Shown piece after piece: positions 3,613-61,934 of a DNA stretch of 64,000 nt. How positions within the stretch are numbered: the stretch's first letter is position 1; every line of letters starts with the position of its first letter. The notes under the pieces were generated by a model, which made no database searches, was not told where the DNA came from, and saw only the letters and a program-made list of their open reading frames with translations. A program made the position numbers and the translations under genes. Origin of the DNA: a virus (lineage: Duplodnaviria > Caudoviricetes); the IMG/VR virus record IMGVR_UViG_3300046318_000318; one strand, 5' to 3'.

Positions 3613-3693
3613 GAGTATCTCCTTAACCAGCAGCGTTACAGATGTGTAACTTAAACCACCAGCGATATCTCAGGTTAAGTATATATGACTGAA
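3613..3693 (-). promoter_or_regulatory. Repeated promoter-like motif plus structured leader, copy A
   Basis: TTCAGTCATATATACTTAACC...GGTTTAA-GTTACA(CATC)TGTAAC...GGTTAAGGAGATACTCATG; matches copies at 26570, 39984, 43971 and 61853. Confidence 0.7.
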
Positions 3694-3759
3694 TTTATTT
3701 ATACGCAGAAATATCTATACACCCGGCCTTTATGGCTCGGGTGTATAGATAGATGTTTA

Positions 3760-4533
3760 TCACCAACGAGAAAACGTTGGAAGGGTAACTACTTTAAGGC
3801 CAGAAGGGTTTGTGTTCTTAACAGCCCCATAAGCCTCTTTAGCCAAAGCCAAAGAAGATTCAGTAGCTACTAAAGAACCCATGCTTGTAGCTAATTTCTC
3901 AAGCTGGCTTACTTTAACTTCCTGTTCAGCCATGCACTCTAATACAGGACTGTATGTTTTCTTAGCTAAAGATAAGCCTGGTTCCACCACGTTATCCCAA
4001 GTGACGATTTGCTCAAGCACGCGATGAGTCGTACCTTTAAACATAAAGTCTCTTGTTAAAGCTCTGATAGAAAAGCAAACTTCTTCCTCAGGATTATTTA
4101 AAGAAGCTTCCAAAGATGTAGCATGAGGACCAGCTGGTTTCACTCTAGCCATGATAGCTATCAGATCTTTGTTGCTAAACTTAGGATTTCTTCTTCCGAA
4201 ATCTTCATCTAACCAAATCTCAGAAAAGTGACAAACCACATTGGTCTCTTCTATAGTCAGTATCCTGTTCAGGTAGTCATCCATAGACATACCAGGTGAT
4301 CTCTTAGGATGACCTGATTCACCTTTAAGACATCCTGATTTAACTCTACGCATAAAGATGCTGCTAGTCTCAAATAGCTTCTTAGCACCATCTGCTGTAT
4401 AGAACTGACCTACGCTGTTAAACACGTTAAGACCACCTACAGGCAGTGTATAGTATCCTGCACTGTCAGGTTTCAATAACCCTTTTTTACCAGTGCCCTC
4501 AAGCCTGGTAGATGTAAATTTGATTTGTCCCAT
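3760..4533 (-). CDS. Prohead (head maturation) serine protease, phiKZ gp175-like; start corrected to ATG 4533 (MGQIKF)
   Basis: GYYTLPVGGLNVFNS, LKGESGHP (catalytic His), CFSIR (catalytic Ser) and VTWDNVVEPG (Asp) motifs; position in the protease-vRNAP-tail muramidase cluster. Confidence 0.8.
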   Translation of the reverse strand: MGQIKFTSTRLEGTGKKGLLKPDSAGYYTLPVGGLNVFNSVGQFYTADGAKKLFETSSIFMRRVKSGCLKGESGHPKRSPGMSMDDYLNRILTIEETNVVCHFSEIWLDEDFGRRNPKFSNKDLIAIMARVKPAGPHATSLEASLNNPEEEVCFSIRALTRDFMFKGTTHRVLEQIVTWDNVVEPGLSLAKKTYSPVLECMAEQEVKVSQLEKLATSMGSLVATESSLALAKEAYGAVKNTNPSGLKVVTLPTFSRW

Positions 4534-4626
4534 GCCTGCCTCAATATAGAGTAAAAGTAACTGCAACCACTGTATTTAATTAAAAGAACATAAGAACTAT
4601 CTGGAACCTTGCGGCTCCAGATAGAC

Positions 4627-5340
4627 TTAAGCTCGAAGTATGCTTTCGATTTTATCCACTTTGGTGGTGGGGGTAACTAAAGCACTCACAACACCATCAG
4701 AGAAATAACTACCAGCTATCTTGTTAACTGTGCTGTTAACAGAATAGAAGATGCTGCTTAAAGGAACAAAGTCTATCTTGCTGTTGACTATGTCAGCATA
4801 GCTTTTAGCCACAGACCGTATGTACTTAGATCTATCATCTTTACTTCTGGTGACCATAGAAGCTATTAATTCAATAACTTCATAGTTACCAGCCACATCA
4901 CTACCAGCATGTGACTTTGCAGTATCGAATAACTTACCTACATCTTCATAACCCATATACCAAGGTATCTTACCTTTGAATATGAACTCATCGAAAATGT
5001 TGTACATCAACAGATCGTCTCTTACCACTTCGGTGTTCTTAATAACCACATCACCAGCTCTGAATTCAAATTGATGATATTCAACCTCATCAATCTCAAC
5101 CACAGAAGTCTTAAATGGATTAATAGACATAACCGCAGTTACGTTGCATAACGTGTATTCACCATTCTCAAAGATCACAGGAAAGCAACCGTAGATTCTG
5201 GTTTCCACGCCTACTTCACCCAGACCTCTTTCAGAGTAACGATAAGGAACTTGTATCTTACAGTTTTCTTTTGTAAGTATCTGTCCCTTACCATTATCTA
5301 CCAGTTTGGCTTTACACGCTGGTGAGCGTGTGTACTTCAT
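4627..5340 (-). CDS. Conserved phiKZ-like protein (gp176 position), probably virion-associated
   Basis: 237-aa ORF, translationally coupled to 5337..6797. Assignment rests on synteny and recall. Confidence 0.6.
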   Translation of the reverse strand: MKYTRSPACKAKLVDNGKGQILTKENCKIQVPYRYSERGLGEVGVETRIYGCFPVIFENGEYTLCNVTAVMSINPFKTSVVEIDEVEYHQFEFRAGDVVIKNTEVVRDDLLMYNIFDEFIFKGKIPWYMGYEDVGKLFDTAKSHAGSDVAGNYEVIELIASMVTRSKDDRSKYIRSVAKSYADIVNSKIDFVPLSSIFYSVNSTVNKIAGSYFSDGVVSALVTPTTKVDKIESILRA

Positions 5341-6797
5341 GATTGAACAGGTGTGATCTGGTCAGCCAGATAGTCAGTGACATAGTTTACAGCAGAAACC
5401 AAAGCTGCTTCTCTTGGATCCAGATTAGGATTCAGTTTAGTAGCTTGTTCAATACCAGACAGAATCTGATAACCTGCTGTAAAATAGAAACGTGCACGAG
5501 CCATCAAATTCAAAGCCAGTTCAGCAACCAGATCCAAATCATGCAGCTTGAGACAGCCGATATATTCAGACGCTACTTTCATAACTGTGTTTGCGTACTG
5601 AGGATCTTTATTGACGTATTCTTTTTCTACATCAGACAAATTACACATATGTGTATTCATCACAGTCAGTAAGAACAATTTGGTGTTATCCAAACGAGCG
5701 TTCTCAGCAGACACAGATGCAAATGAACAATAAGAGTTCCAGCCACGGGTCAGAGCGTCTCGTGAATCCAAAACTGTAGACAAAGATGTAGCTCCGCTGT
5801 TGGTAGCACAAACACCCAACACCATCTCTACAGTACCGCCTTGTTCAAGATAAGCTCTGTAAACAGAACCTTGAACATAGATAGACTTAGTCTTGCTATC
5901 AGACTTCAGAATCAGAGTGTTGTTCTTGATCATGAAGTAAGCGCGTTTGATAAGGCTGTTCAACATAGAACCAGCAAAATCACGCACTTCCAACATGTAA
6001 GACTGATACTCGTTCAAGCTGGTGTTCAAACCTTCAGGTACGTTGCTATGTAGTTTCTGAGCCATAGTGTACAGCACCAGACACATATACAAAGCATCAT
6101 ACAGATTCTGCTGACCCAGAGTAGAGTAACTTACATCTAATCCGCTATTTGGATTCTGTCTGAAGAAAGCATCAAAGACTCTTTTAGCAAAATCATCACC
6201 TATTTCTACAACAGCTTCATTAAGCAGCTTATCGATACGAGCAGAACCCAAAGACAACAAAGAGTTGTGATCAACAACCACATCATCAAAGCTAACATAG
6301 CCCTTAGGGATAATAGAAGCTTTACCTTCGTAGTACTTAAACTGCTCAATGAAACTCTGGTCTTCAAACAAAGCAGGAAGTTCTTTCTGAACGATGTTGA
6401 AAGAACTGGCAGGATCCACTACTTTGTTACGCTGACAATACTCAGCATACTCAGTCATAAATTCCAGAACATGAGGCTTAACCACATTACGAGCTATCGC
6501 TATGTGAGAAGTTACCACACCACTAAGAGTGTCGATGACTTGGCCAATAGCGTTGTCGTGTAAAGATGGGCTCTCAAGAGTTCCTGTTGAAACAGATGCA
6601 AGATCGTCTGCTGTAGTATTGATATACTCAGCAGACATCAAAGTCTCAGGAGATACCAATGCATTCTCTGCATTACAGGAAGACAGATTAACCAACTGAC
6701 CGAGAAGAGAATTGCTATTGGCTACCAGAGCCTTTTTCTGACCTGCGTAGTGAGCACCCAGCTCATACGAAGAAGTCAAAATTATTTTATCTAACAT
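5337..6797 (-). CDS. Conserved phiKZ-like protein (gp177 position)
   Basis: 486-aa ORF lying between the vRNAP beta gene and the protease. Confidence 0.6.
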   Translation of the reverse strand: MLDKIILTSSYELGAHYAGQKKALVANSNSLLGQLVNLSSCNAENALVSPETLMSAEYINTTADDLASVSTGTLESPSLHDNAIGQVIDTLSGVVTSHIAIARNVVKPHVLEFMTEYAEYCQRNKVVDPASSFNIVQKELPALFEDQSFIEQFKYYEGKASIIPKGYVSFDDVVVDHNSLLSLGSARIDKLLNEAVVEIGDDFAKRVFDAFFRQNPNSGLDVSYSTLGQQNLYDALYMCLVLYTMAQKLHSNVPEGLNTSLNEYQSYMLEVRDFAGSMLNSLIKRAYFMIKNNTLILKSDSKTKSIYVQGSVYRAYLEQGGTVEMVLGVCATNSGATSLSTVLDSRDALTRGWNSYCSFASVSAENARLDNTKLFLLTVMNTHMCNLSDVEKEYVNKDPQYANTVMKVASEYIGCLKLHDLDLVAELALNLMARARFYFTAGYQILSGIEQATKLNPNLDPREAALVSAVNYVTDYLADQITPVQS

Positions 6798-6871
6798 GTT
6801 AGCGTCCTAAAAAAGAATGGGAATACGGAACATCCAGCTAGACGTATCTAGCCGGATGTCATTTATAAGGA

Positions 6872-7063
6872 TTACTTAACCGCAGCTAATTTAGCTTGTA
6901 ATCTTTGCTTCACCAAACTGTGAATCACTTCAGCAGTGGCTTTAGATCCATTAATCGCGTTAGAGATATCGTTACCAGCAATGTTGGCAACCACACTCTT
7001 GACGATCTGACCTACGTTAGCAATAACCACTGTGTTGTGGACGGTGAGATTAGGAATAGCCAT
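6872..7063 (-). CDS. Small hypothetical protein (63 aa)
   Basis: ATG 2 nt after the beta exon-3 stop, with AAGG upstream. Confidence 0.55.
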   Translation of the reverse strand: MAIPNLTVHNTVVIANVGQIVKSVVANIAGNDISNAINGSKATAEVIHSLVKQRLQAKLAAVK

Positions 7064-7065
7064 GT

Positions 7066-7272
7066 TTAACCTTTATAGACTTTAACTGCCTTTTCGGCAA
7101 CTTTCTTTAACAACGTGGTGGTGGTACCTATCAGAAATGGAGAATTAACAACACGAGCCATAATGGATCTAAATCCAAAAATAGCATCGACTCTTTCACC
7201 AGATTCTGTATGGACATCATAGTCCATAATTTCACCTATCACACTCTTCATTTGATTAGCGAACACAATTTT
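7066..7272 (-). CDS. rpoB: vRNAP beta-like subunit (gp178-like), exon 3 (68 aa, KIVFANQMK...)
   Basis: Joins exon 2 (...GVGD) to give GD|KIVFANQMK, equivalent to bacterial GDKMAGRHGNK; preceded by the intron terminal G at 7273. Confidence 0.85.
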   Translation of the reverse strand, partial: KIVFANQMKSVIGEIMDYDVHTESGERVDAIFGFRSIMARVVNSPFLIGTTTTLLKKVAEKAVKVYKG

Positions 7273-8890
7273 CGTTATCTTCAGATAAGGGCGTTAGTCC
7301 TATCTCGCACCATAACGCGCAGCTCTAGCTTTCACTAGATGTCGAGACTATATCTTTACCGTACTTTATAAATACGGTATCTTCCGTTTCGAACTCCACT
7401 CGGAGCCCTACAGGTTGGTAAAACCTTAGTCGTTGGCCACACTCCTATACGGAGCTTCGGTGCTGGGTTGTCCATTGTAATATCTCAACACTTTTTAAAA
7501 CCATGACGCTTACCGTTTCCAGTTTCGCTTTGGTAGCTGAGCTTTAGGAGTTTCCCGCAATTAGGAAGAATTCTACGTCGCTATTACTAGCAACTAGGAC
7601 TATCAGTACTCATTTCCTTAAAAGTGAATTCATCATAAGACTTTCCTGTTTTTAATCTATCTGCTAAAGTTCTTTTATCTAAGCCAATGTCAATTGTCAC
7701 TGATCTCTTACTTTTATATACTTTCACATCGCCAGTAGTCAGATTAGTAACTATTACCATTTTTGGTGGAGTGAATCTAGTTTCTCTGAAATTTTCAGGC
7801 CATTTGTCCTTTGACACTTTTCTGAACAAATAACCGCTATGCGATATCACATCAACTGATCGTAGTGCAGACTCTATGCGGTCCTGACTAACACCAGTCA
7901 ATTCTGACAATTCTTTCACCGACTTAGCTTTAACAACTTTTTTGGAATCTAGTTCCAAAGCCTCTAATAGAACTTTATGATGCTTACGAGCGGTTTGGAT
8001 GACAGCCTGGTTATATTGCCAGGTTCTCTTCCCAACGTCTTTTGTAAACATCAGCTCAAAACGATTCAGGAATAAATTTGCAACGATCTCATTACCATGT
8101 TTTCTATAAATGGGTTTAACTGACCGCATACCCAGATATTTGAAAGCTTTTTTAAGTGAATAATGCTCGCTTACACTGTCGGTTTCCCAGTCTTTTACAA
8201 GCACATTGACACTGTCTGTTTTCAAACCTGTAACCATGGCGTGGGTGTTATTTTCTTTTGATGTCACCCATTCTAAATTTTTTAAATCGTCGTTCTGTTT
8301 GTTTCCGTCGATGTGGTTAACAAAGAATTTATTTGCGGGATCGCTGTTTCTTAAAAAGGCTCGCGCAAGAAGAATGTGGACACACACACCTCTCCATCTA
8401 TTTTTATCAGGATCATATATTGATACTTCAGTATAACCATAAGAACTTCTTCGTCGATTCATTCTCTTGTATTTTAAAAGAGAAATTACATCTCCGGCTC
8501 TATTGATTATAAAACCAGGGAAACCTGGAATCAGTACATATCCATCTTTATAACAAATAGGGGTTCGTATTTCCATCAGCCACTGACATCTTAGTTTAAG
8601 CACTTTTGATTTACATTCAGTAAATGTTATCTTTTCCAATTCAGGTAAAGTCAACATAACCTCATAATGAGCCAAAAGACTTAACCAATGTCTGTGATAG
8701 GTTCTGTATACATCACCTATCAAAACACTAATAACATTCTTCTCAACTTTCACAGACGGGGAATTTTCATTTTCCTTGAACCAACATTCGTGATTCTGAT
8801 TAAAAACATATCTTTTATCCACTAATAAAGGTTTTAGCATATATAGATCCTGAGTTATTATTCTCACTCTATATATGGAATACTGCTTTA
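7273..8890 (-). mobile_element. Group I intron (1618 nt) with HNH homing endonuclease, in vRNAP beta at GD|K
   Basis: Minus-strand core elements: P AAUUGCGGGAA (7552-7562), Q CAACCCAGCAC (7460-7470), R CCAACGACUA (7427-7436), S AAGAUAUAGUCU (7345-7356). The 5' exon ends in U, the intron ends in G, IGS is GUC, and P2 has a GUAA tetraloop. Confidence 0.9.
7587..8840 (-). CDS. Intron-encoded HNH homing endonuclease (NUMOD4-like + HNH + repeated C-terminal DNA-binding modules); likely start ATG 8840 (417 aa)
   Basis: VHILLARAF...VNHIDGNKQNDDLKNLEWVTSKENNTHA HNH motif; AGGA RBS before ATG 8840. Confidence 0.88.
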   Translation of the reverse strand: MLKPLLVDKRYVFNQNHECWFKENENSPSVKVEKNVISVLIGDVYRTYHRHWLSLLAHYEVMLTLPELEKITFTECKSKVLKLRCQWLMEIRTPICYKDGYVLIPGFPGFIINRAGDVISLLKYKRMNRRRSSYGYTEVSIYDPDKNRWRGVCVHILLARAFLRNSDPANKFFVNHIDGNKQNDDLKNLEWVTSKENNTHAMVTGLKTDSVNVLVKDWETDSVSEHYSLKKAFKYLGMRSVKPIYRKHGNEIVANLFLNRFELMFTKDVGKRTWQYNQAVIQTARKHHKVLLEALELDSKKVVKAKSVKELSELTGVSQDRIESALRSVDVISHSGYLFRKVSKDKWPENFRETRFTPPKMVIVTNLTTGDVKVYKSKRSVTIDIGLDKRTLADRLKTGKSYDEFTFKEMSTDSPSC

Positions 8891-9799: not shown

Positions 9800-11162
9800 C
9801 TTACTGTCCAATAAAGTCGCTCAGCTTCACAGCTTACCCTCTTTACCCGGTGTGCTCAGACACCCGCCTATATTCTCATACAGGAACAGACTATATCTTC
9901 ACCCTCTGTATACAGTAGGGCGCTCTCCGCTTCGAATACCGCTAGGTATCCTACAGGTTGATAAAACCTTAGTCGTTGAACTTTACACATGGTTGATCAG
10001 AATCAACTTTAGCGTCTTAGCTGCTGATTGTCTCTACCTACTAATTTTCAAACACGTTACGTATGTGTTTTCACACTCCGCTTTGGTTTAGTAGTCTAAC
10101 AAGAGTTTCCAGCAATTCAAAGAGATTCTTTGAAAAGTTTCTTTTCCAAAGGACTTAACTGACTGTAATACACATACTTTCTACCGTCACGGTGAACCTT
10201 TGCTTCTTGGTTTAAACGCCAGTGTAAGGTAGTTATTTTAATACCATTATCGCTAGCGCAACTTGTGACAGACTTATATATTTTTCTTTCGTCTGTCAGA
10301 CAGTTCCAAACAGTTATGACTTTACACCCTGTGAAATTTTCATAACTTTCAATGAAATCTGTGTGTGTTACCCAAGGTATCGAATTATCATTAGGTTTAA
10401 GCTGAATAAAATTATCTATAACCGGCTGATCTTTGTTGTAAAACAACTGAGAAACATAACCTGTGCTTAAGCCTAATTTTGACGATACTTCATTACAACT
10501 ACTGTAGATAGTGATTCTTTCAATAGCTGGATATGTTCTCACCGCAACGCTTTTGTTCCTACCGTAAAGTTTTTTCGCTTCTTCTAAATCTTTTATTTCA
10601 ACCCAAGGTGTTTTATCTTTCTTCAGTTTGAATTGTTGACCAGATGGCGATAATCTTTTACCTAGGTATCTTAATCTGTATAAAACAGTATCCTTACTAA
10701 CACCAAGATGTTTGGAACATTCAATGATGCTAGGGTATTCCGATATCAAACCACTTTTAACATCTCTTACTAAAATAGGTAAACACTTTCTACTTAAGTT
10801 GTTAAGACCTGCGTGTTCAACGTTCTGTTTAGGTGTTACGATTTCAAGATTTTCAAGTGTGTTGTTGTGTTTATTACCGTCCTTATGGTTTACATACAAC
10901 TCACCAAACTTTTCATAATCGCTGCAAATAAAACAAAACGCTATCAGTCTATGCAATCCCCAAGTTAAGGTTACGCCATTATCGGATGTTAATCTAATAT
11001 TGGTGTAACCTGCTGGATTTATAGATCCTTTTAAAAACTTTTCTCTATGAAACGAAAAAACTTTTCCATCTGGCGAGACTCTGTATTTAGAGTAACCTTT
11101 TGGAATCTTAAAATTAGGTGTATTACATTCAGTCATATACAGTTCCTCACTGTATATATTTA
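9800..11162 (-). mobile_element. Group I intron (1363 nt) with HNH homing endonuclease, in vRNAP beta at DD|GKR
   Basis: P AAUUGCUGGAA (10107-10117), Q CAAUCAGCAGC (10020-10030), R GUUCAACGACUA (9970-9981), S AAGAUAUAGUCU (9888-9899); GAU| 5' site and terminal G at 9800. Confidence 0.9.
10117..11136 (-). CDS. Intron-encoded HNH homing endonuclease (339 aa)
   Basis: KYRVSPDGKVFS NUMOD4-like segment; LHRLIAFCF...VNHKDGNKHNNTLENLEIVTPKQNVEHA HNH motif; GAGGA RBS. Confidence 0.9.
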   Translation of the reverse strand: MTECNTPNFKIPKGYSKYRVSPDGKVFSFHREKFLKGSINPAGYTNIRLTSDNGVTLTWGLHRLIAFCFICSDYEKFGELYVNHKDGNKHNNTLENLEIVTPKQNVEHAGLNNLSRKCLPILVRDVKSGLISEYPSIIECSKHLGVSKDTVLYRLRYLGKRLSPSGQQFKLKKDKTPWVEIKDLEEAKKLYGRNKSVAVRTYPAIERITIYSSCNEVSSKLGLSTGYVSQLFYNKDQPVIDNFIQLKPNDNSIPWVTHTDFIESYENFTGCKVITVWNCLTDERKIYKSVTSCASDNGIKITTLHWRLNQEAKVHRDGRKYVYYSQLSPLEKKLFKESL

Positions 11163-14100
11163 ATCATCTTGACTACTACCTGGTGCAAGCATAGTGGCTG
11201 TGCTTACCATAGAAGCAGGTGTTACATTTTTATCAGCTTTGATAATCCCACGCATATCCTTAAAATTTGGATTAGACGAAAGATAGAAGTTGATACCCAC
11301 GTCACCGCTGTCAACAGAAGCTTCAGAGACCACACCTACATCAGACACATGAAAAGCTCTGGTGGCTTTGTTCATGGATTCTTTACCACGACCACCTTCA
11401 CCTACATATGTCACTATCTCAGACTCTTTCATGTTCTGGATAGGGTTGATATCCTCTACTAACTTAATAGCAGGGTCTTTCATAATAGCTGACCATACAG
11501 CAAAAGGAGACATATCTATCTTGGATCTTCCAGAGATATTCTTATTCCTATACTGTCTTATAGCTGTAGATAATTGACTGTAGACTATGCCAGAGATACG
11601 CTCATAACCTCTGATACGCATGTGGTTTAGGTCTTGAGTATCTGGATGGCTGTAATCTACAAGCATCTCAGTAGACTTGACTAACAAACCTTCAAAAGTA
11701 ACAGGCATGTTCATCTGCTCAAGTATGGTTTTAGTAATCCCATCTATAAACAGTTGACGATAGACATCCAGTTCACGTATGTATAGTGAGCTCAGAGATT
11801 TACTTTCAAACAAGTTGAAATAAACATCTTTGTCGTTATACATCTCTACCGGATATTGTTTTAGAGTTTTCTCAAAGTCTAAGAAGCCAGAGAGTATTAA
11901 ACTGGCTGCTTTCTGTTTCCTGCTGAATATGTAAGACACATCAGCAAACTTCAAAGCGTATTCATCTTGCTGAAGATCCTTTTGGAACCTGCCTTCGACG
12001 ACACGATACTTGGCTTTAAGAAGAGTCAGTAGTTTATCTAGCCCAATGTAGTACCCAAGCACTACACCGACAGGTATTGTCTTAGCAAATACTCTAAGCT
12101 CTGTAAAGTCTACAGGTGATTTGGTTTTATCTATCCCTAGCATGGTCTCTATATGACCTATGCTGACATATCCACCTGCTTTATAGATAAAGAATTCTTC
12201 AGTCTCAGCCATCACGATAGGTTCCAGCTTAGCTGTAAACCCACAGACTATACTTCCGTTCTTCTCTATTTTAGCAAAGTCGTCAGAAATAACAGATCGA
12301 TCTCTTTCATCAAAGATGAAAGTATTACCTGCTATCTTAAACGTTTTATAGTTTTGAGACAGAAAGCTATAGAGGTAAGGAGCTTTAAGTAAGTTGTTAT
12401 ACACGTTAGCAGGACCCAGATCTGTAATGACAGGGTTTTCTAACATGCTTAACTTACTGATGTTTCTCAATAACCAATCGTAAGAGCTGTTGGCTTTCTT
12501 ATCAGATACAGCCACAAACGTCTTACCGTAATAGCTGGTTAAAGCTACTGTGATAGGGTCTATTTTGCGGATAGGTGTATCTACACGCTGTTTTCTGTAA
12601 GAGTAAGAAGACCCACCTACCTTCATCACTCCGTCTTCATCCACACACGGTACTCTGAACCGTATCGTAGAAGCCATACCGTCTACAGGTTTAAACTGTA
12701 CTTCATGTACATCGTAGGCACCCATGACACTACTTTCATTTCTGATCTCATAGCTGGTTATAGCTACACCAGCTTTCTGTAAACCAGACACCATCATCAA
12801 CATGTCTTTCTTCATGACTTTGTTGATGTAAGCTTTATCAAAAGACTGTAAAGAAGATTCAGCCATCGTCTTGTCTAACATGTATTCAGACGTGACTATT
12901 TTATTGTCTTCTTCATTTAAAGTGACATCAGCTACTGTAACAGAGTTCAACTCAGAGATTTTCTTCTTGCTACCGTAAGGATCTTCTATGTTGTCAAATT
13001 CTTCAGCCAGCTTAACCATCTTTTTATAATCAGCTGCTGACAACCTACCAGTATCAGCAGCAGCATCTATAGACATTTTAAGACTTTCTTTATAAGTCTT
13101 ATCCCCATAGACTTCAGCTTGTACTTGTTCTTCTGTAAATACTCTCTTGAGTTTGGTTTCGGTAACTGCACCTTCACCATCTACAGATATGCCTTTCTTG
13201 GCTAACTTGTTCTTCTGTACAGTATCAGCTACTTTGACTTCTTCATCCACTTGAGCCAATATAGCGTCAATATCTTTTATATCGTTTAAACCATCGTCTT
13301 CATCCTCAGAAACCTCAGGCTTTTTATCTGTGGTTTCTTTTGCTTTAGACTTGGTAACACCATGCATGAAAGCATCTGATACCTCACCAGGTAGATCTAC
13401 CTCATCATCGAAGTCAACAGACTCTGCATCCTGAACAGGATCTTCCATCAAAGGTTCTTCTTCTGCAATCTCAGAAGAAGTATTCAGCTCCATCAAAAAC
13501 TTCAGAAACAACTTCTGGATGTGGGTATCCTCAAGCTGCATAGTGTCATTAAAGCCTGTTAGGTTGTTATGTCCTTTGATCCAACTAGACATATAACCTA
13601 AGTTAACGATAGAAGCTTTATTGGTTTTGTTAAAGAAAACGATGTTTACTTTAGAAAGCTTGTCCTCAGTGATACCAGACAAAACACTTTGACCTGAGTT
13701 CTCTTTATCCAACCATTTGTAAACCTCAAGAACAAACAGTTTCTCAACTGTATTAAATACAGTCAGTAAACCTGTACTAGGCTTGGCTTTAGAGAACTGT
13801 TCTAAGAAGCTAACTGCAGGTACCTCTTTAGGCACAGACATGAAGATAAAGTGATGCCTTCCAGATATCCCACAATCTTTAGACACGTTTTCAAATAACG
13901 TATTATAAAGATTCTTAAACTTGAAATAAGGCGTTGTAGCCAGATCCATGTATTTATAACTCTCATGCAGATAGTTATAATTTTTCACGATTAAAGTACT
14001 GCTGTCTTTAACAACAGCTGTGGCTTCAGGTCTGTATTGAAACAGTTTGTTTTTCAGATGGAAATCTCTGATAGCCACTTTCAATACAAAAGGTACCTTC

Positions 14101-14333
14101 CTGGCACCACCTTCTGTAAAGTCCGACACAAAGACATAGTCAGTAGCTATCCTGTTTTTAAAACCTTTGAAATAAAGCTTAGAAACATCAAGATCCATAC
14201 CACCATCCATAGTGAGGTGGTGGTAAACAGAATCTCTGGGAAAGCTTATGAAATCCACTATTTTTGGACTGACTAAGTTCTGTATGCGTCTGGTACCTGA
14301 TTCTCTATAGAAGAGATTAAAAAGTTTTTGCAT
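11163..14333 (-). CDS. rpoB: vRNAP beta-like subunit (gp178-like), exon 1 (1057 aa); spliced product 1057+303+68 = 1428 aa
   Basis: RIRGYER, EDINPIQ, VTYVGEGGRGKES...RAFHVSDVGVVSEASVDSGDVG (fork/Rif-region-like) motifs; the ORF ends at the splice site SQDD|UAA. Confidence 0.88.
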
Positions 14334-14500: not shown

Positions 14501-14839
14501 CTTATTGTCCAGTAAAGTCGCTCGGTTATATAAACCTACTCTCTTTACCCGGTGTGCTAAGACACCCGCCTGTACTTTCATACAGGAACAGACCATATCA
14601 CCATCTTCAGCTTTATCTGGTAAGATGCTTCCCACTTCGGATCTGCTAGATCCTACTCCCTTACGGGATGGTCGTTGAACGTTCACCTATACGGTGCTTC
14701 GCTGCTGATAACCCAATCCTAATCTTTTCAAACCGTGGCTTTGGCTTTCGCCTCGCGGTGGTGATTAGGCTCTAAGGGTGTTCCAGCAATTCAAGAAGTT
14801 TTCATTACAGAATTTCTTCTATATGCGACAATGTTACTT
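14501..14839 (-). mobile_element. ORF-less group I intron (339 nt), downstream member of the tandem pair in the beta-prime catalytic motif
   Basis: P 14781-14791, Q 14701-14710, R GUUCAACGACCA (14669-14680), S GAUAUGGUC (14591-14599). P7 is GACCA/UGGUC, a compensatory change from GACUA/UAGUC in the other three introns. P1 is CGAU|AA/UUGUCG; P10 is GUAACAUU/GGUGAUAC (7 of 8 positions pair). Confidence 0.9.
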
Positions 14840-14845
14840 ATCGAA
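14840..14845 (-). CDS. rpoC: 6-nt micro-exon (TTC GAT = Phe-Asp) of the vRNAP beta-prime catalytic ADFDGD motif (exon 2)
   Basis: Flanked by the upstream intron end (...GGACAAUAGG|) and the downstream intron start (|AAGUAACAUUGUCG). It is the exact piece needed to rebuild LGAD-FD-GDTM in frame. Confidence 0.85.
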
Positions 14846-15256
14846 CCTATTGTCCAGTTACAGTCGTTCGGTTTCAAACCTATCATAAAGTAACCCGGTG
14901 TGCTTAGACACCCGCCTTTGGCTTTCCCAAAGGAGCAGACTATATCTTCACCCTCTGTTTATACAGTAGGGTGTTTCCCACTTCGGAGATACTATCTCCT
15001 ACACCTTGCTTAAGGGTTAGTCGTTGAACTTTACGCATGGTTGGCTATAAAGTCAACTTTAGCGTCTTAGCTGCTGATTACCCATTGTTACATTTAATCC
15101 GTTTTCAAACCTTGGCTTTGATTTTCATCTAGCGGTGGTGGATTAACTTTAGGGTGTTCCAGCAATTCAAGAAAAATCTCTTTAAATATTACTATTTAAG
15201 AGGACAATCGGATATAAAATATGAATACTTTTAACTCACTTTTTATATCCTTTTTT
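14846..15256 (-). mobile_element. ORF-less group I intron (411 nt), upstream member of the tandem pair in the beta-prime catalytic motif
   Basis: P 15157-15167, Q 15070-15079, R 15018-15029, S 14937-14948. P2 is UAAAUA-GUAA-UAUUUA; the 5' exon ends GCU GAU and the intron ends in G at 14846. Confidence 0.9.
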
Positions 15257-26219: not shown

Positions 26220-26269
26220 AACAAAAAAAAATTAACACCCCCGGCCTGTTATGGCTAGGGGTGTTATTT
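26220..26269. terminator. Repeated bidirectional terminator hairpin (family copy 1)
   Basis: A-run + taacacccccggcc-tgttat-ggctaggggtgtta + T-rich tail; near-identical copies at 39388, 43722 and 61315. Confidence 0.75.
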
Positions 26270-26272
26270 ATA

Positions 26273-26569
26273 TTAAACCAAGTGCATGCGCACTTGGCTT
26301 TCATGTACCTCGGGGAATCCGAGGCTGTCAAGAGATTGTCGAATTGACCAGCCCTGACCAACGCGCCTGGCGTTGGTGCAGTAGAGATCGGCTGCGACAT
26401 CGTCGCAGCCGTCGGCTTTGACGGCTTTACCGAGTAACCCAGTGGTCTTGTCGACCACCAAGTATAGTTTCCCGATCCAGCCGTCTTTGACGGCGAGAGT
26501 TTGAACATTTGCGGCGGGTGCATAATTGCGCTCGCCTTCGTTGCCAAACTGGCAGGTAACTGCGTTCAT
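26273..26569 (-). CDS. Accessory hypothetical protein (98 aa; start corrected to ATG 26569, MNAVTC)
   Basis: AAGGAGATACTC RBS identical to leader copies A and E; visibly more GC-rich than its neighbours. Confidence 0.7.
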   Translation of the reverse strand: MNAVTCQFGNEGERNYAPAANVQTLAVKDGWIGKLYLVVDKTTGLLGKAVKADGCDDVAADLYCTNARRVGQGWSIRQSLDSLGFPEVHESQVRMHLV

Positions 26570-26650
26570 GAGTATCTCCTTAACCATGAGTTCGAAAGAT
26601 GTTTCGATTAAACCACAGCGATAGCTCAAATAGAATATATGTGACTGAAA
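26570..26650 (-). promoter_or_regulatory. Repeated promoter-like motif plus structured leader, copy B
   Basis: TTTCAGTCACATATATTC...GCTATCGCTGTGGTTTAA-TCGAAA(CATC)TTTCGA...GGTTAAGGAG. Confidence 0.7.
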
Positions 26651-26693
26651 AAGTTTACACAGGGGAAACCCTGTGTAAACTTATAATCAGCTT

Positions 26694-30840: not shown

Positions 30841-30885
30841 AAAGCATTATCTCACTACCCTGAAAAGGGTAGTGAGATATGTTTG

Positions 30886-35011: not shown

Positions 35012-35049
35012 TAAGATACTACAGGACCTGATGGTCCTGTAGTATCTTA
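35012..35049. terminator. Long-stem hairpin between convergent genes
   Basis: taagatactacaggacc-tgat-ggtcctgtagtatctta (17-bp perfect stem). Confidence 0.7.
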
Positions 35050-39387: not shown

Positions 39388-39439
39388 AGCAAAAAAAAAA
39401 ATCATCCCCGGCCTGTGAAGGCTAGGGGGATGATTTTTA
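39388..39439. terminator. Repeated bidirectional terminator hairpin (family copy 2)
   Basis: A-run + atcatccccggcc-tgtgaa-ggctagggggatgat + T-run. Confidence 0.75.
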
Positions 39440-39760
39440 CTTTCCAGCAGGACAATGACCTGTAAAGTCCAGTTCATAACCTTTGCCGGGGGTAATATTC
39501 ACTGTTGGATATCTCCATCCAACAGCGCGACCATAGTGGTCGCGAAAGAAGACATGTGCCCCCAGCTGTCGCTGGGTGTTGTATCGGGTCCACTCCGACC
39601 TGTCGATCAGGTAGACGTCGGCCGTCCCGCCATCGGGGAGTGATAAGCTACACTCCCCGCTACCGTCGTCAACCCCACCCCAATCTTCGCCGTCGTCCCA
39701 CTCCTCGGCAAATGACGAGAAGAATGGAACTGTAATTTTTATGTTAGAATTTGCGTACAT
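39437..39760 (-). CDS. Accessory hypothetical protein (107 aa) with an acidic N-terminal patch
   Basis: AGGAG RBS; GC-rich relative to its neighbours. Confidence 0.7.
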   Translation of the reverse strand: MYANSNIKITVPFFSSFAEEWDDGEDWGGVDDGSGECSLSLPDGGTADVYLIDRSEWTRYNTQRQLGAHVFFRDHYGRAVGWRYPTVNITPGKGYELDFTGHCPAGK

Positions 39761-39896
39761 GACTATCTCCTGTTAACCTGTATTCACGATATGCGAACTT
39801 GAACAGGCTAATAATCCCTTTTTGCTGGCCAAGCGTCAGGGCAGGTTTTGGCCCAACTATTTATTTAAAGAGGTTAGTTGTCAACCTCTTGGGAAG

Positions 39897-39983
39897 TCAG
39901 CGACGTGTCGTCACTGCTTCCCAAATGATGAAAGGCGTTGTGATCGCCGCAAAGGCGATCACTGCAATGTCAATCATATCCAT
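39897..39983 (-). CDS. Unannotated 28-aa single-helix membrane peptide MDMIDIAVIAFAAITTPFIIWEAVTTRR
   Basis: Hand-translated; GAGGAG RBS; first ORF behind leader copy C. Confidence 0.65.
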   Translation of the reverse strand: MDMIDIAVIAFAAITTPFIIWEAVTTRR

Positions 39984-40066
39984 AATGTACTCCTCAGCTG
40001 ATAGCTAGATCAAAAACAATCTATTAAACTACAGCTATACATCAAGTTAAGTATATATGACTGAAA
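39984..40066 (-). promoter_or_regulatory. Repeated promoter-like motif plus structured leader, copy C
   Basis: TTTCAGTCATATATACTTAACTTGAT...GTTTAA-TAGATT(GTTTTT)GATCTA-GCTATCAGCTGAGGAG; nearly identical to copy D. Confidence 0.7.
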
Positions 40067-40078
40067 TCTTTTACAAGG

Positions 40079-40252
40079 TCAAGAAAGCACTCTAGCTTCT
40101 CTCACAGAAGATATCATCCTATACCCACCCATGCGCAAAGGTTTGGTAGGTTCTGTATAGATCTCCAGAACTTTATCTTCCTTCTTGGCCTGCTCGATAA
40201 GCTCACTCACCACTTTTTCAAACTCTTCACGGGTCTTGATATTTTCAAACAT
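40079..40252 (-). CDS. Unannotated 57-aa hypothetical protein (MFENIKTREEFEKVVSELIEQ...)
   Basis: Hand-translated; AAGGA RBS just after the SbcC stop; falls below the 60-aa ORF cutoff. Confidence 0.55.
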   Translation of the reverse strand: MFENIKTREEFEKVVSELIEQAKKEDKVLEIYTEPTKPLRMGGYRMISSVREARVLS

Positions 40253-40263
40253 GATTCTTTCCT

Positions 40264-42762
40264 TTACATTAAAGCAGGTTCAGTAAAATCTACACAGTTG
40301 TTATACCCACAACCTTTAGGTATCACCACGTTGTTAGGACATAGTACCACCACGTCTGCATTGGCTATACTGCCATAGCTGTCTTCATAATGGGATATTA
40401 GAAAGACTTGACTATGATTAGAGTTAGTCATCAGGTCAGTTACGGTGTTGAAAGCTGACTTTCTGTGAGCAGAATCCATGTTAACGGAAAACTCATCTAA
40501 GAACAAAGGTGCCTTATCCAGCTTTAGGTATTTCATAGACACTCTCATGAAAGCCATGTCTATCACTTCCTTCATAGCAGATGATCCCAGACTTACATCA
40601 GAGATATCGTTCTTATCATTGACTTTGACTTGAAACTTATAATCAAGTTCTAATTCATCGTCTAGTTGAAAGACAGGTTGTATCTCAAGAGGATATAACC
40701 AGACTTTCTTGATAATAGCGTTCATCTGTATAACGAAATGATTGATGAAGTTAATCAACCCTTTAGCGATAAGTCCTTCAGTAGGACTTAACTCTTTGAG
40801 CATGATCTTATACACTTCAGCCTGTTCTTGATACTCAGCTATCTGTTTCTCTATAGAGGTAAGCAGAGCTGCTTGGATATCTATCCTGGACACCATCTGA
40901 GTCAAACTAGCCAGTTCAGACTTAACCAACCTGATACAAGAAGTTATAAAATCTTGGCTAATAGTTTTCTCTATGTCTCTTACAGCTGAGCTATGGGCTG
41001 TCTGTAGATTAAACAGCTCTTGTTTCTTGAGATCTAGATTTTCTACGATGGCTATAGACTTAAGTAAGGATTGTTCTTTTACTTTGCTTCTTCTGATTTT
41101 TACCTGATAGTCCTGAGCAGACAGTTCTAATTTAGCATACTTGATCTTAAGGGCGGATAGGTCGTTACTTTGATTCTCAGCTGTGATCTGTTTGATCTTA
41201 GATAATTCAGCTAACTTATCTATAGAGAGATTGAGTTGTTTCTGTTTGTCCAGTTCCTGACTGTATGTCTGGATCATCTGTCTTACGCCTATAGGAGCCG
41301 TTCTCAGAGAACCATAAGACATGATGTGTTTCCACATGCTGTCTAAAGCTTCTACTTGTGTCATGAGTTTAAGAAACTGACTCATCAAAGTTAGATATTC
41401 AAACTGTTCAGCTTTTACACTCTCTAACAATTTAATCTGAAGTTCCAACACAGGTATGTCTTTATCCAATATTTCTCTGGATCTCAAACATTCATCATAC
41501 AGAGACTGAGAGAAACCTTTGAACCAAGTATGTTTACAGTTAGGGCAGCTAACTTCGTTATGTTGTTTAGCGTGGTCGTACTCCTTTAACTGAGTAAAGA
41601 GTTTATCAGAAGCAAATCTGGTGTTGTTAAGCTTCAGATTAAGATCTGCCAAAGCCTGAACATTACTCTGATAGCTTTCTTTTGTGTAACCTTTGTTAGC
41701 ATGCTTATACATCTCTGTCAGATACTCATCTAACTGAGGTTTAACAGAAGATAAAGCAGCAGATACAACATCAGGGTTTTTAACAATAGGGAAACTCAGT
41801 TGTTTATGCAACTGATCTATTTCATCTTGTATAGACTTAAGGCTCACATCTAGATCTTGAAAAGAAGCTAAGTTGTTCTGTTCCAACATGGATATAGACT
41901 TGCTCTGTTCATCCATCTCTTGATAGACCTTATGCAGAAGAGTCTCTAAAGACTTGATATCTGATTTAACAAATAACAAATCATCGAGTATTTCTTGCTT
42001 ACCCACATAGTTTTCTGGATTAATAAACTTGTTTCTATCTTGAACAGTATCTGTAGCTGCTTTCCTAAGTTTGAGCTGTATGGTATCAAAATCAGAAAGT
42101 GTGCTTGCCTTTAAGATAGACTGATCTGTTTGAGAAAGCAATCCGTCTAAGAACATGTTCAAATGACGTATGTCTTCTCTGTATTTGATATGCTCTTGCT
42201 CATTAGGCAGCTTGTTAGTCTCCTGCACTAATCTAGCTTGCTGTAGTTTGACAGCTCCTTGTATATCTCGGTACTGTTCTTTAAGCTTGTTGTAGAAACC
42301 TATAGCAAAGGTGTAATCACAATCAGCTATCTGGGTAAACCACTTTCTTCTCTCAGCCACAGACATCTTACTGAACTTAACTCTACCTGTCATAAGCCCA
42401 TGTACATCTGGAGTGATGTTAAACTCTTTTCTGACAAGTTCTTTAAACACAGTTACTGTGTGTCCAGGATTAAGCTCTTCCCCATCTTTACAAAAAGAAA
42501 ACTTATTACCCAGAGCTGTGAAGTCACTCTTTAAGGTATAGGTGCTTCCGTTGTGCTGGTAGGTTATATGTTTGTAACCTGACTTCTTATACTCAGAAGC
42601 TTCAGCAGGCAGAGGGCTCAATTCTTTAATCAAGCTGCTTTTACCAGATCCGTTACTACCAAGAATCAGCTGTATTTTTTTATCTGGGCTGTATTTGAAA
42701 TACTCTATAGAGTTCAAAGACATTCTCTCGTAGCCTTTAATCACCACTTCTTTTATCTGCAT
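40264..42762 (-). CDS. sbcC: SbcC/Rad50-like SMC ATPase (phiKZ gp165-like)
   Basis: Walker A GSNGSGKSS, long coiled coil, Zn-hook CPNC, Walker B LFLDEFSVNMD. Confidence 0.88.
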   Translation of the reverse strand: MQIKEVVIKGYERMSLNSIEYFKYSPDKKIQLILGSNGSGKSSLIKELSPLPAEASEYKKSGYKHITYQHNGSTYTLKSDFTALGNKFSFCKDGEELNPGHTVTVFKELVRKEFNITPDVHGLMTGRVKFSKMSVAERRKWFTQIADCDYTFAIGFYNKLKEQYRDIQGAVKLQQARLVQETNKLPNEQEHIKYREDIRHLNMFLDGLLSQTDQSILKASTLSDFDTIQLKLRKAATDTVQDRNKFINPENYVGKQEILDDLLFVKSDIKSLETLLHKVYQEMDEQSKSISMLEQNNLASFQDLDVSLKSIQDEIDQLHKQLSFPIVKNPDVVSAALSSVKPQLDEYLTEMYKHANKGYTKESYQSNVQALADLNLKLNNTRFASDKLFTQLKEYDHAKQHNEVSCPNCKHTWFKGFSQSLYDECLRSREILDKDIPVLELQIKLLESVKAEQFEYLTLMSQFLKLMTQVEALDSMWKHIMSYGSLRTAPIGVRQMIQTYSQELDKQKQLNLSIDKLAELSKIKQITAENQSNDLSALKIKYAKLELSAQDYQVKIRRSKVKEQSLLKSIAIVENLDLKKQELFNLQTAHSSAVRDIEKTISQDFITSCIRLVKSELASLTQMVSRIDIQAALLTSIEKQIAEYQEQAEVYKIMLKELSPTEGLIAKGLINFINHFVIQMNAIIKKVWLYPLEIQPVFQLDDELELDYKFQVKVNDKNDISDVSLGSSAMKEVIDMAFMRVSMKYLKLDKAPLFLDEFSVNMDSAHRKSAFNTVTDLMTNSNHSQVFLISHYEDSYGSIANADVVVLCPNNVVIPKGCGYNNCVDFTEPALM

Positions 42763-43721: not shown

Positions 43722-43769
43722 ACAAAAAAAAATAACACCCCCGGCCTGTGAGGGCTAGGGGTGTTATTC
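43722..43769. terminator. Repeated bidirectional terminator hairpin (family copy 3)
   Basis: A-run + taacacccccggcc-tgtgag-ggctaggggtgtta. Confidence 0.75.
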
Positions 43770-43970
43770 TCACGAAAACGCCAGATAGGGTTTTCGTGAA
43801 AAGACCCGGACCCCGTCCTCGCGGACGAAACTCCAGGTTTTCCTAACCATACACTTTTTGTACCGGGTTTCCCCGGTTTTAATGCTTTTGCTCATCCGCG
43901 CAGCTGCGCGGAGAGCGTACCCCGCAGCATAAAATGCTGCGGTGGTTTCACGACGGGTCATGTGTTCCAT
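43770..43970 (-). CDS. Accessory small basic protein (66 aa)
   Basis: GAGGAG RBS; lies in a leader/terminator cassette; Arg/Lys-rich. Confidence 0.7.
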   Translation of the reverse strand: MEHMTRRETTAAFYAAGYALRAAARMSKSIKTGETRYKKCMVRKTWSFVREDGVRVFSRKPYLAFS

Positions 43971-44053
43971 AATACACTCCTCAGCTGATAGCTAGATCAA
44001 AAGCAATCTATTAAACTACAGCTATGTATCAAGTTAAGTATATGTGATTGAAA
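43971..44053 (-). promoter_or_regulatory. Repeated promoter-like motif plus structured leader, copy D
   Basis: TTTCAATCACATATACTTAACTTGAT...GTTTAA-TAGATT(GCTTTT)GATCTA. Confidence 0.7.
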
Positions 44054-44113
44054 TCTTTTATAAGCCGAATAAAAAACTCTATACCAGCCTAGGCTGGTAT
44101 AGAGTAATTCTTT

Positions 44114-52184: not shown

Positions 52185-52187
52185 ATT

Positions 52188-52604: not shown

Positions 52605-52605
52605 G

Positions 52606-53361: not shown

Positions 53362-53371
53362 AGATATCCTT

Positions 53372-54085: not shown

Positions 54086-54086
54086 A

Positions 54087-55476: not shown

Positions 55477-55568
55477 AAGACTTACCTTTTTTATTTAATA
55501 CAATTTCATAGCATATAAAAACAGGGTAAATATCTGACTGAGCCTTCAGTGGCTCAGTCAGATATGGT

Positions 55569-56408: not shown

Positions 56409-56423
56409 GTTGATCCTTGTTTA

Positions 56424-58604: not shown

Positions 58605-58625
58605 TTTGTTCTCCAGGAGTTCTTA

Positions 58626-61304: not shown

Positions 61305-61314
61305 TCTTTAAATA

Positions 61315-61358
61315 GAAAAAAAATAACACCCTGGCCTTTTGGGCTGGGGTGTTATTTT
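61315..61358. terminator. Repeated bidirectional terminator hairpin (family copy 4)
   Basis: A-run + taacaccctggcc-tttt-gggctggggtgtta + T-run. Confidence 0.75.
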
Positions 61359-61363
61359 AATTC

Positions 61364-61852
61364 TTATTTACTCAGGAGTTGTTTCAACTCCGTGATGTCT
61401 TTGGCAATACCGCCAGATCCATCCCAGGAATCACCTAGGAGCTGGATCATCGACGACAACCCAACCGCCCCTGTGGGAATTCCCAACAGGGTCAGTAGAT
61501 TGTTTTGGGTAGTCTTGACAAAGACCCCCTCATTACCACTCTTGTAGCGCTCATGGACACATACGTGCCCGTATTCGCTACCTTGGACAATCAAGAGCCG
61601 ATTAGTCTCCCAATCATAGGAGACGTACATGTCTCCGTCATTAATCTTCTCATACAGGACACCATCATAGTATCCCGTACCATTTGCCCACTCTTGGCGA
61701 TAAACCAGGATTTTGTTTTCTTTAACAAGTCTTTGACAGTGTCGGTAAAACACTGTCCCTGCTTCTGTCGTCGGAATGCGACCATTATTGTACAGGGTTT
61801 CATTGCCCTCACCCCAAAAGGTGAAAACGAATTTTTCGAATGTCTGTGCCAT
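61364..61852 (-). CDS. Accessory hypothetical protein (162 aa) in a promoter-leader cassette
   Basis: AAGGAGATACTC RBS shared with copies A and B. Confidence 0.75.
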   Translation of the reverse strand: MAQTFEKFVFTFWGEGNETLYNNGRIPTTEAGTVFYRHCQRLVKENKILVYRQEWANGTGYYDGVLYEKINDGDMYVSYDWETNRLLIVQGSEYGHVCVHERYKSGNEGVFVKTTQNNLLTLLGIPTGAVGLSSMIQLLGDSWDGSGGIAKDITELKQLLSK

Positions 61853-61934
61853 GAGTATCTCCTTAACTGATAGTGTCGCAGAAAGAACGACTTAAACCAC
61901 AGCGATAGCTCAAGTTAAGTGTACGTGATTGAAA
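61853..61934 (-). promoter_or_regulatory. Repeated promoter-like motif plus structured leader, copy E
   Basis: TTTCAATCACGTACACTTAACT...GCTATCGCTGTGGTTTAA-GTCGT(TCTTTCT)GCGAC...AGTTAAGGAG. Confidence 0.7.

Follow-up and report, generated by a model that had tools for sequence, protein, structure and literature searches.

Putative expression cassettes with a covarying 5′ leader and exchangeable small genes in a phiKZ-like freshwater phage

The window, the whole 64,000-nt stretch of DNA analysed here, comes from a phiKZ-type giant phage, uncultured and of freshwater origin. It encodes an RNA polymerase beta-like subunit at 11160-14333 (phrog_3148 match, E 1e-277), with ~31% identity to homologues in jumbo phages, and also virion proteins of the sort typical for the phiKZ-like group. 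This agrees with the vRNAP-based view of an earlier, sequence-only reading: the DNA is that of a phiKZ-like jumbo phage with multisubunit RNA polymerase subunits. Five cassettes, A to E, each comprise a ~35 bp promoter and a ~62-nt leader with a strong ribosome site, followed by a small ORFan and, last, a terminator. Their parts are as follows, with P3 denoting the apical hairpin of the leader and G001 a close relative.

3672..3706, minus strand: promoter A (-35 to -1); predicted +1 is the G at 3671; PWM score 46 bits (shuffles reach at most 14)
3610..3673, minus strand: leader A, from CTGA to ATG; P3 at 3635-3650; MFE -17.4 kcal/mol, three-helix fold; CM 78.7 bits
3124..3612, minus strand: cargo A, a 162-aa ORFan; no Pfam or PHROG match; 87% amino acid identity in G001
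3089..3123, minus strand: terminator A, with its own hairpin sequence followed by a T-run
26628..26662, minus strand: promoter B, with a variant -10 region; predicted +1 at 26627; motif match and PWM
26567..26629, minus strand: leader B; P3 at 26592-26607; -13.5 kcal/mol; CM 83.2 bits
26273..26569, minus strand: cargo B, a 98-aa ORFan; no family match; absent from G001, where another gene fills the slot
26223..26267, minus strand: terminator B, of the shared family; repeated in G001
40044..40078, minus strand: promoter C; predicted +1 at 40043; motif match and PWM
39981..40045, minus strand: leader C; P3 at 40006-40023; -18.2 kcal/mol, z -2.7; CM 71.1 bits
39897..39983, minus strand: cargo C, a 28-aa hydrophobic micro-ORF; 80% amino acid identity in G001
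39437..39760, minus strand: cargo C2, a 107-aa ORFan that follows C within its unit; no family match; replaced in G001
39390..39436, minus strand: terminator closing cassette C, of the shared family
44031..44065, minus strand: promoter D; predicted +1 at 44030; a terminator hairpin lies just upstream (44076-44105)
43968..44032, minus strand: leader D; P3 at 43993-44010; -18.0 kcal/mol
43770..43970, minus strand: cargo D, a 66-aa ORFan; absent from G001, where another gene fills the slot
43724..43767, minus strand: terminator D, of the shared family
61912..61946, minus strand: promoter E; predicted +1 at 61911; a terminator lies just upstream
61850..61913, minus strand: leader E; P3 at 61875-61891; -15.7 kcal/mol; CM 86.9 bits
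61364..61852, minus strand: cargo E, a 162-aa ORFan; 74% amino acid identity in G001
61316..61355, minus strand: terminator E, of the shared family
3014..3055, minus strand: a sixth member of this promoter class, degenerate in sequence; PWM 23 bits (at most 14 in shuffles); nhmmer E 0.009

All cargo genes are ORFans. Each cassette has its terminator as a distinct element at the 3′ end, and a single sequence family is common to four of the five, with that of A differing. Upstream of promoter B lies a hairpin whose 3′ arm extends into the -30 block.

The motif that first drew attention to these sites recurs as described: its 21 nt occur five times with 0-3 mismatches, all on the minus strand (starts at 3694, 26650, 40066, 44053 and 61934), against a chance expectation of 0.06 and with none of 100 shuffles reaching five. 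Each copy starts 82-83 nt ahead of an ATG, in agreement with the ~80 nt given before, and the (G/A)GTTTAA box is present in 5/5. A whole-element nhmmer search (~120 nt) returned the same five copies (E 2e-29 to 7e-25) and one weak match at 3051. Conservation extends farther upstream to a TTGTAAA block, giving ~35 bp in total, with conserved blocks at approximately -33 to -27, -23 to -15 and -14 to -7 and, after a gap of 6 nt, a G. The TTGA at the promoter end is invariant, and it is assigned to the promoter because the two are retained together ahead of unrelated leaders too. The sixth promoter has such an unrelated leader, ahead of a gene at 2484-2957, and the same arrangement is found in G001. 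Transcription is predicted to start at or beside the G of TTGA.

This motif is AT-rich, highly conserved and over-represented upstream of genes, in gene orientation. All five copies lie on the gene strand; G001 has 7 forward and 0 reverse promoters by pattern (17 and 0 by PWM), and the 14 leader (CM) matches in G004, a further relative, fall on one strand only, with a promoter preceding each one inspected. The block layout and invariant TTGA fit the published scheme for jumbo-phage early promoters, which combine blocks with a conserved start region (PMC7598289, PMC5312081, PMC11512511), the start position here being a prediction. By analogy, the multisubunit RNA polymerase that the phage itself encodes, in its virion form, most probably reads the promoter, which would hence be early; the labels “early” and “vRNAP” both derive from this comparison. 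A strong host-polymerase promoter of the sigma-70 type, as in the PeSL cassettes of T4-type phages, is an unlikely alternative. TTGTAA and TATACT do resemble -35 and -10 hexamers, but their spacing is 15 nt, and a scan for spacings of 16-18 nt flagged none of promoters B, C and D. The spacer bases are also conserved in G004 and in another further relative, G002, which fits recognition over ~35 bp, and transcription in phiKZ-like phages does not depend on the host polymerase (PMC7598289). RNA assemblies, which consist of assembled contigs without 5′ ends, include one contig that crosses promoter C and one from a relative that crosses the promoter of that relative's E-type cassette; both could represent read-through or DNA carry-over.

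The predicted 5′ leader of ~62 nt has the same fold before five small genes and carries the strong ribosome site. It forms a three-tier hairpin, more structured than was described earlier. In P1, the predicted 5′ end pairs with the 7-8 nt spacer between the Shine-Dalgarno sequence and the AUG; P2 is a G-U-rich middle helix; and P3, at the apex, has a freely variable tip. The invariant GUUUAA provides the top two pairs of P2 and a UUAA bulge, while the Shine-Dalgarno sequence AAGGA lies single-stranded within an internal loop. The apical hairpins proposed before are present as written, with different stems and the same CATC loop in A and B, one stem in C and D and another in E. The same three-tier minimum-energy structure is found in 14/16 leaders; of the exceptions, g21060 combines P1 and P3 with a different middle pairing and g111802 folds otherwise. 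In copies that retain the full fold, the Shine-Dalgarno sequence is unpaired with a probability of 0.8-0.99. The advantage in folding energy over shuffles is modest (z -1.3 to -2.7). With a further 33 nt, taken from the coding sequence, P1 disappears from the minimum-energy fold in A and B, and all three helices are retained in 11/19 copies; one G004 leader subfamily is without P1. The leader hairpins have no T-run and are unflagged by the terminator scan. Rfam gave no gathering-score match over the window except four group I introns, and nothing at E up to 1 for leader E.

Support for this fold comes from 29 distinct copies, drawn from the genomes of four phages and a short contig from a metagenome. 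G001 is syntenic with the window and was used for slot-by-slot comparison, and G002 and G004 were found independently of the promoter pattern. Across the set, 92.0% of cells are paired, against 28-45% in slid controls, with double changes in 15/20 pairs and pairing of 100% in P3, 95.5% in P2 and 84% in P1. A 15-copy set gave 92.6% against 29-54% when slid. An arm-swap permutation test gave 0/2000 for every helix, although such shuffle statistics overstate independence because the copies are related paralogues and orthologues. Between D and C, P1 differs by two adjacent double compensatory changes. GUUUAA and the opposing AC are invariant in 29/29 distinct copies, while nearly all other paired positions vary. 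The earlier claim of a conserved, covarying RNA leader is thus well supported by the pairing statistics of P1, P2 and P3; at the level of sequence comparison, covariation shows the fold.

The outer pairing originally proposed fares differently, since as a single element it combines non-equivalent positions and is not the best model. Its TGATA/TATCA form holds in D and fails in C, which reads TGATG. The TTAACY/RGTTAA helix is paired in 79% of cells (15 copies) with a double change in one pair only, and two of its columns are unpaired in 6/15 and 8/15 copies. It also competes with the better-supported P2 and requires promoter bases that are probably not transcribed. In its place stand the covarying helices P1 and P2, which surround the P3 hairpin. 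The sequence-only reading therefore keeps its five copies, box, P3 hairpins and leader RNA, and loses its outer pairing.

Hairpins are tied to phage early transcripts or promoters in several known cases, including T7 RNase III sites, lambda nut sites and N4 hairpin promoters, the last being DNA hairpins upstream of the start that are read by a single-subunit virion polymerase. Action of the inverted repeats in DNA, whether as an N4-type promoter element, a cruciform or a recombination site, is very improbable here. The repeats do mark recombination borders between relatives, and contigs of other samples break or diverge at them, but such breaks are expected anyway at repeats longer than the assembler's word. 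Among 19 copies, G-U cells outnumber A-C cells by 39 to 2, and with Watson-Crick pairs alone the paired cells fall to 82%; pairing thus holds on the sense strand only, and the fold belongs to sense RNA. The same counts disfavour the DNA hairpin element that had been offered as an alternative. The long-range helices P1 and P2 would moreover be hard to form in duplex DNA, and the hairpin lies ~21-40 nt downstream of the predicted start. An N4-type hairpin promoter was rejected on its position downstream of a conserved promoter and its dependence on G-U pairs. A lambda-type nut site was also rejected: unlike boxB, the loop sequence is unconserved, with at least 11 kinds of P3 stem bearing different loops, and the boxA-like stretch is the base-paired 5′ strand of P2, which covaries and is replaced in the G001 copy at 62603.

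A quite unlikely reading is that the composite helix is an RNase III processing site, at which cleavage frees the ribosome site or sets mRNA half-life. Its total length of 20-23 bp and asymmetric internal loops resemble T7-type substrates, the comparison cases being the T7 early-mRNA sites and the lambda N leader. However, a bulge and two loops, one of 4 nt and one of 5-6 nt, break up the helix, many of its pairs are G-U, and a cut in the 3′ loop would fall on the ribosome site.

Comparison with G001 shows, from sequence, that the cassettes are plug-in units swapped between close relatives. Cargo genes B, C2 and D are replaced in three slots, G001 carries one extra cassette, and combinations of promoter, hairpin and gene are re-assorted, so that the same leader stands before unrelated genes. 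The sequence-only reading made no mention of the pairing of the 5′ end with the spacer in P1, the looped ribosome site, the completeness of the cassettes, their shared terminators or their shuffling.

We consider it probable, at roughly 0.6, that these units are self-contained phiKZ-like expression cassettes, each with a phage-polymerase promoter, a folded cis-acting leader and exchangeable cargo. The phage multisubunit RNA polymerase would read the ~35 bp promoter and start at or next to the G of TTGA, and the resulting ~62-nt 5′ UTR would fold back on itself into a single long three-tier hairpin. We infer that the leader acts in cis on its mRNA: it may bury the 5′ end, protecting against 5′-end-dependent decay, and may render ribosome-site accessibility independent of the downstream cargo gene, which would suit units whose cargo is exchanged. 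As the comparison shows, relatives exchange, gain or lose cargo through recombination in the promoter, leader and terminator sequences that the units have in common. The paired spacer could, conversely, lower rather than help translation, and a purely structural role leaves the invariant GUUUAA unexplained.

That invariance, in a leader whose other paired positions mostly vary, raises a possible though doubtful alternative, in which the leader is an operator for a trans-acting RNA-binding protein or endonuclease, of phage or host, that switches all cassette mRNAs together off (or on). Analogous cases are repression by T4 RegA and cleavage of early mRNAs at GGAG by RegB. In its favour, a loop exposes the ribosome site in every case, and the same leader ahead of unrelated genes would make a regulon. 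On the other hand, no candidate protein was identified, the freely varying P3 stem and loop cannot be a specific binding site, and UUUAA-like A/U-rich boxes precede the ribosome site in unrelated leaders behind the same promoter class; the GUUUAA box may thus be a general translation element. Tentatively, the scaffold might fix the spatial arrangement of two single-stranded signals, the UUAA bulge (closed by a G-C and a U-A pair) and the AAGGA loop, so as to present them to a trans-acting partner. If so, the partner could be a phage translational repressor, a nuclease or the ribosome after modification by a phage protein, and the cassette genes would form one post-transcriptional regulon, switched jointly during infection.

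The favoured reading, a cis-acting leader in an exchangeable cassette, bears on a little-described step of infection. Jumbo phages like phiKZ carry out transcription themselves, and their early promoters are known as motifs, while nothing is described of the fate of jumbo-phage early messages once made. That compensating mutations have preserved this leader in at least 29 copies suggests that selection acts on the survival of the mRNA or on access for ribosomes, in genes that are accessory and probably serve host takeover or counter-defence. Promoter plus leader marks the accessory genes that can be swapped within this phage clade, and the element, at 62 nt, is also small enough to try as a portable expression insulator.

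Stabilizing stem-loops at the 5′ terminus are known in bacterial and phage mRNAs, such as the ompA 5′ UTR. The leader described here likewise has a helix that begins at the 5′ end or within 1-2 nt of it, and the ribosome site farther on is accessible. Unlike ompA-type stabilizers, its 5′ end pairs with the spacer directly before the AUG, closing the whole UTR, and stabilization is putative. Conservation at -10, -20 and -30 is seen in the promoters of phiKZ and 201phi2-1 (PMC11512511, PMC8244752, PMC7598289), and the AR9 promoter has the layout element-(6N)-G (PMC5312081). The present motif shares with them its length, conservation and AT-richness, over-representation upstream of small hypothetical genes, conserved blocks near -10, -20 and -30, a conserved region at the predicted start ~6 nt past the element and an encoding genome with multisubunit RNA polymerase subunits; in contrast, its sequence is clade-specific, and its start and early timing are assigned by analogy. 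The 5′ UTRs of phiKZ are mostly 31-40 nt, a shared folded leader is not described for phiKZ-like early promoters (PMC7598289, PMC8244752, PMC11512511, PMC5312081), and unexplained 5′ UTR motifs are merely mentioned for AR9 (PMC5312081).

The cassettes also resemble the PeSLs of the T4-type phages RB49 and phi1 (PMC2839356), which are likewise repeated intergenic units of ~100 bp with an early promoter and stem-loop, flanking ORFans with their own terminator, and at which genes are inserted, deleted or replaced between close relatives. The PeSL promoter is sigma-70-like, whereas the one here is probably read by a phage polymerase (hexamer spacing 15, unflagged). The PeSL stem-loop is itself the terminator, whereas here it is a covarying 5′ UTR fold without a U-run, and the terminator is separate, at the 3′ end. 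The cassette behaviour carries the PeSL idea from T4-type to nucleus-forming jumbo phages.

Five minus-strand cassettes (A–E) in the window each comprise a promoter-like motif that is repeated and strand-specific, a leader with a covarying fold on the sense strand, one or more small genes (cargo) and a terminator, in an architecture that is shuffled. The source is an uncultured phage, a divergent jumbo phage of the phiKZ type, as follows from its divergent RNA polymerase subunit (~30–32% identical to homologues of Burkholderia FLC9, Ralstonia RP12, Erwinia, Serratia and Goslar-type jumbo phages), the absence of a near match at the DNA level among deposited phages, and the occurrence of stretches of the window in public runs that are freshwater metagenomes. 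Other genes in the window encode large virion proteins, a phiKZ-type prohead protease (Peptidase_S80) and an SbcC-like ATPase, the last with homologues at 57–70% identity in Logan and JGI. Four group I introns (79–86 bits) lie within the RNA polymerase subunit gene block, and several places in G001, a relative, match intron-like repeats.

11160-14333: RNA polymerase beta-like subunit (phrog_3148, E 1e-277)
7323-7617, minus strand: group I intron (Rfam RF00028)
9867-10177, minus strand: group I intron (Rfam RF00028)
14569-14849, minus strand: group I intron (Rfam RF00028)
14916-15234, minus strand: group I intron (Rfam RF00028)

The 21-nt motif that the sequence-only reading had placed at five sites, all on the minus strand, was borne out against an expectation of 0.06, and a profile of the whole element (~120 nt) recovers the same five copies plus one weak copy at 3051. 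The motif is longer than that reading described, with a TTGTAAA block upstream and an invariant TTGA downstream, for a total of ~35 bp. With the G of TTGA as +1, conserved blocks fall at -33 to -27, -23 to -15 and -14 to -7, and 6 nt separate the -10-like block from this G. Early promoters of phiKZ and 201phi2-1 are conserved at -10, -20 and -30 and precede hypothetical genes (PMC8244752, PMC11512511), while the AR9 consensus consists of an element, 6N and a G start (PMC5312081). A host promoter of the sigma-70 type is less likely, as a scan with 16–18 nt spacing left promoters B, C and D unflagged and the hexamer-like parts lie 15 nt apart. Based on the fit of the predicted block layout and the missing sigma-70 flag, the motif is placed, as a putative clade-specific form, among the early promoters of jumbo phages; transcription would start at the G of TTGA, and the virion polymerase would transcribe the cassettes early. 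The same promoter, including TTGA, also precedes unrelated leaders in G001 and in metagenome contigs L011, L013, L025 and L028, which makes TTGA part of the promoter rather than of the leader. Most promoters have a terminator or hairpin immediately upstream. The gene upstream of promoter B ends, directly before the promoter, in a perfect hairpin (26653-26680, minus strand); the 3′ arm of this hairpin and the Ts that follow double as the -30 block of promoter B, so that terminator and promoter overlap.

From TTGA to ATG the leader measures 62–65 nt, and 14 of 16 strong copies adopt the same three-tier hairpin; of the other two, g21060 pairs differently in the middle but keeps P1 and P3, and g111802 has another fold. 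In P1, 8 pairs, interrupted by a single bulge in most types, link the start of the predicted transcript to the 7–8 nt separating the ribosome site from the AUG, leaving the AAGGA of the ribosome site in a 5–6-nt loop on the 3′ strand. P2 is G-U-rich, with 8 pairs and one bulged U, and is followed on the 5′ strand by a UUAA bulge and then by P3, the variable tip.

Pairing is well maintained across copies. Among 15 copies aligned with MAFFT, paired cells make up 92.6%, compared with 29–54% when partners are slid by 1–3 columns. Model-fitted alignments, which are biased towards their own structure, give 92.7% (19 distinct copies) and 92.0% (29 distinct copies) against 28–45%, with double-sided changes at 11 of 20 and 15 of 20 pairs, respectively; none of 500 shuffles matched the observed values, although such statistics are not probabilities because the copies are relatives of one another. 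By helix, 100% of cells are paired in P3 (at least 11 different stems), 95.5% in P2 and 84% in P1. As the C/D type pairs in P1 are shifted by one register, counting by column underestimates this helix, and a register-free test was therefore used, comparing the duplex energy of cognate and permuted arms; no permutation in 2000 equalled the cognate arms for P1, P2 or P3. Copies C and D, ~90% alike elsewhere, differ in P1 by two adjacent double compensatory changes. In an RNA-library contig from a related strain, one P2 pair differs on both sides, a G-to-A change being matched by C-to-U, a state also found in G001. This contig, from run X24, spans 39858-40320; its changes in leader C, at 40032 and 40000-39999, include an additional A-to-G that turns a neighbouring pair into G-U. 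Folding energies (-13.5 to -18.2 kcal/mol) have modest z values of -1.3 to -2.7 and by themselves are weak evidence for the fold. With 33 nt of coding sequence appended, all three helices are kept in 11 of 19 copies and P1 is lost elsewhere, including A and B; one leader subfamily of the relative G004 is without P1.

The inverted repeats could alternatively act as DNA hairpins, as had been suggested. This is less likely, as G-U occupies 39 cells of the leader pairs against 2 for A-C, and pairing drops from 93% on the sense strand to 83% on the opposite strand, or 82% if only Watson-Crick pairs are counted. These asymmetries point to sense RNA, rather than DNA or an antisense transcript, as the probable bearer of the covarying fold. 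The apical hairpins agree with the earlier description, and it correctly anticipated a covarying outer helix, but named the wrong pairs: TTAACY/RGTTAA has 79% of cells paired and one double change, inferior to P1 and P2, and TGATA/TATCA is not present in C. The TTAACY/RGTTAA helix also does not form in copies with a different promoter variant and is mutually exclusive with P2. Nut-like, N4-like and attenuator/terminator readings of the leader were rejected, as was a sigma-70 reading of the promoter. The pairing between 5′ end and spacer does not extend to all leaders of this promoter class; the unrelated ones mostly have just a 5′-proximal hairpin.

G001 (IMG/VR contig 3300021440_000015) is syntenic with the window at 70–95% DNA identity and carries 10 strong element copies and several weaker promoters, on one strand throughout. 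Of two further relatives, G002 (3300046332_000143) has 3 leaders and G004 (3300046328_000321) has 13–14, and the element is also found on one small metagenome contig, L029; chance matches dominate the metagenome pattern scan, and true relatives were picked out by their flanks. Among 78 loci from chimalliviruses at a greater distance (SbcC-like protein identity ≤38%), the leader covariance model found no match, nor did it in any of the 80 loci scanned out of 109 pattern matches in bacterial and archaeal genomes, and Rfam has no match to the leader. On this distribution, the leader family is narrow and specific to its clade, and the promoter reaches slightly wider.

The fold may act in cis: it would protect a base-paired 5′ end and display the ribosome site in a loop independently of the cargo. 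The leader may instead be a protein-binding site or a nuclease target; we consider this improbable, though it would speak to the invariance of GUUUAA in the folded family, which the cis role leaves unexplained. An RNase III site is less likely. UUUAA-like A/U-rich boxes shortly before the ribosome site are frequent in unrelated leaders of the promoter class (window 3014-2958; G001 98393, 115596, 115183 and 21540), and a common role with GUUUAA, for example as a translation enhancer, is possible. Parts of the window occur in two metatranscriptome runs, as assembled contigs only, in which parts without cover carry no meaning; one contig stops within leader B (26605) and another crosses promoter C.

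Every cassette closes with a terminator, of one family in four of the five and distinct in A. Two long, perfect palindromes (35012-35049, 17 pairs; 30848-30879, 14 pairs), between convergent or adjacent genes, look like bidirectional terminators and are unrelated to this family. The cargo proteins (A–E: 162, 98, 28 + 107, 66 and 162 aa) have no match in Pfam or PHROG. Behind the first gene of cassette C lie a weak hairpin, then a second ORF (cargo C2, 39437-39760), which is replaceable, and finally the family terminator.

39897-39983, minus strand: cargo C, a 28-codon hydrophobic micro-ORF, 80% identical in G001

G001 is without cargo B, C2 and D and has different genes in those slots, while its orthologues of A, C and E share 87, 80 and 74% amino acid identity, compared with 97% for a neighbouring gene. 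It also has an additional complete cassette next to A (83072-84180, L037), inserted between the prohead-protease gene and the cargo A orthologue, with a promoter, a leader with a different P3 and a small gene. Promoter variant, P3 type and cargo are re-combined, the G001 orthologue of cargo A having a B-type promoter and an E-type hairpin. Freshwater DNA contigs of other samples stop or diverge exactly at cassette borders (43726-43768, 44029, 44060 and 26659), which may reflect either variation in cassettes at the population level or repeat-induced breaks in the assemblies.

The same gene-swapping behaviour has been described for the promoter-early stem-loop (PeSL) cassettes of T4-type phages (PMC2839356). 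The present cassettes resemble them in this behaviour, but differ in promoter type and in that their terminator is a separate element.
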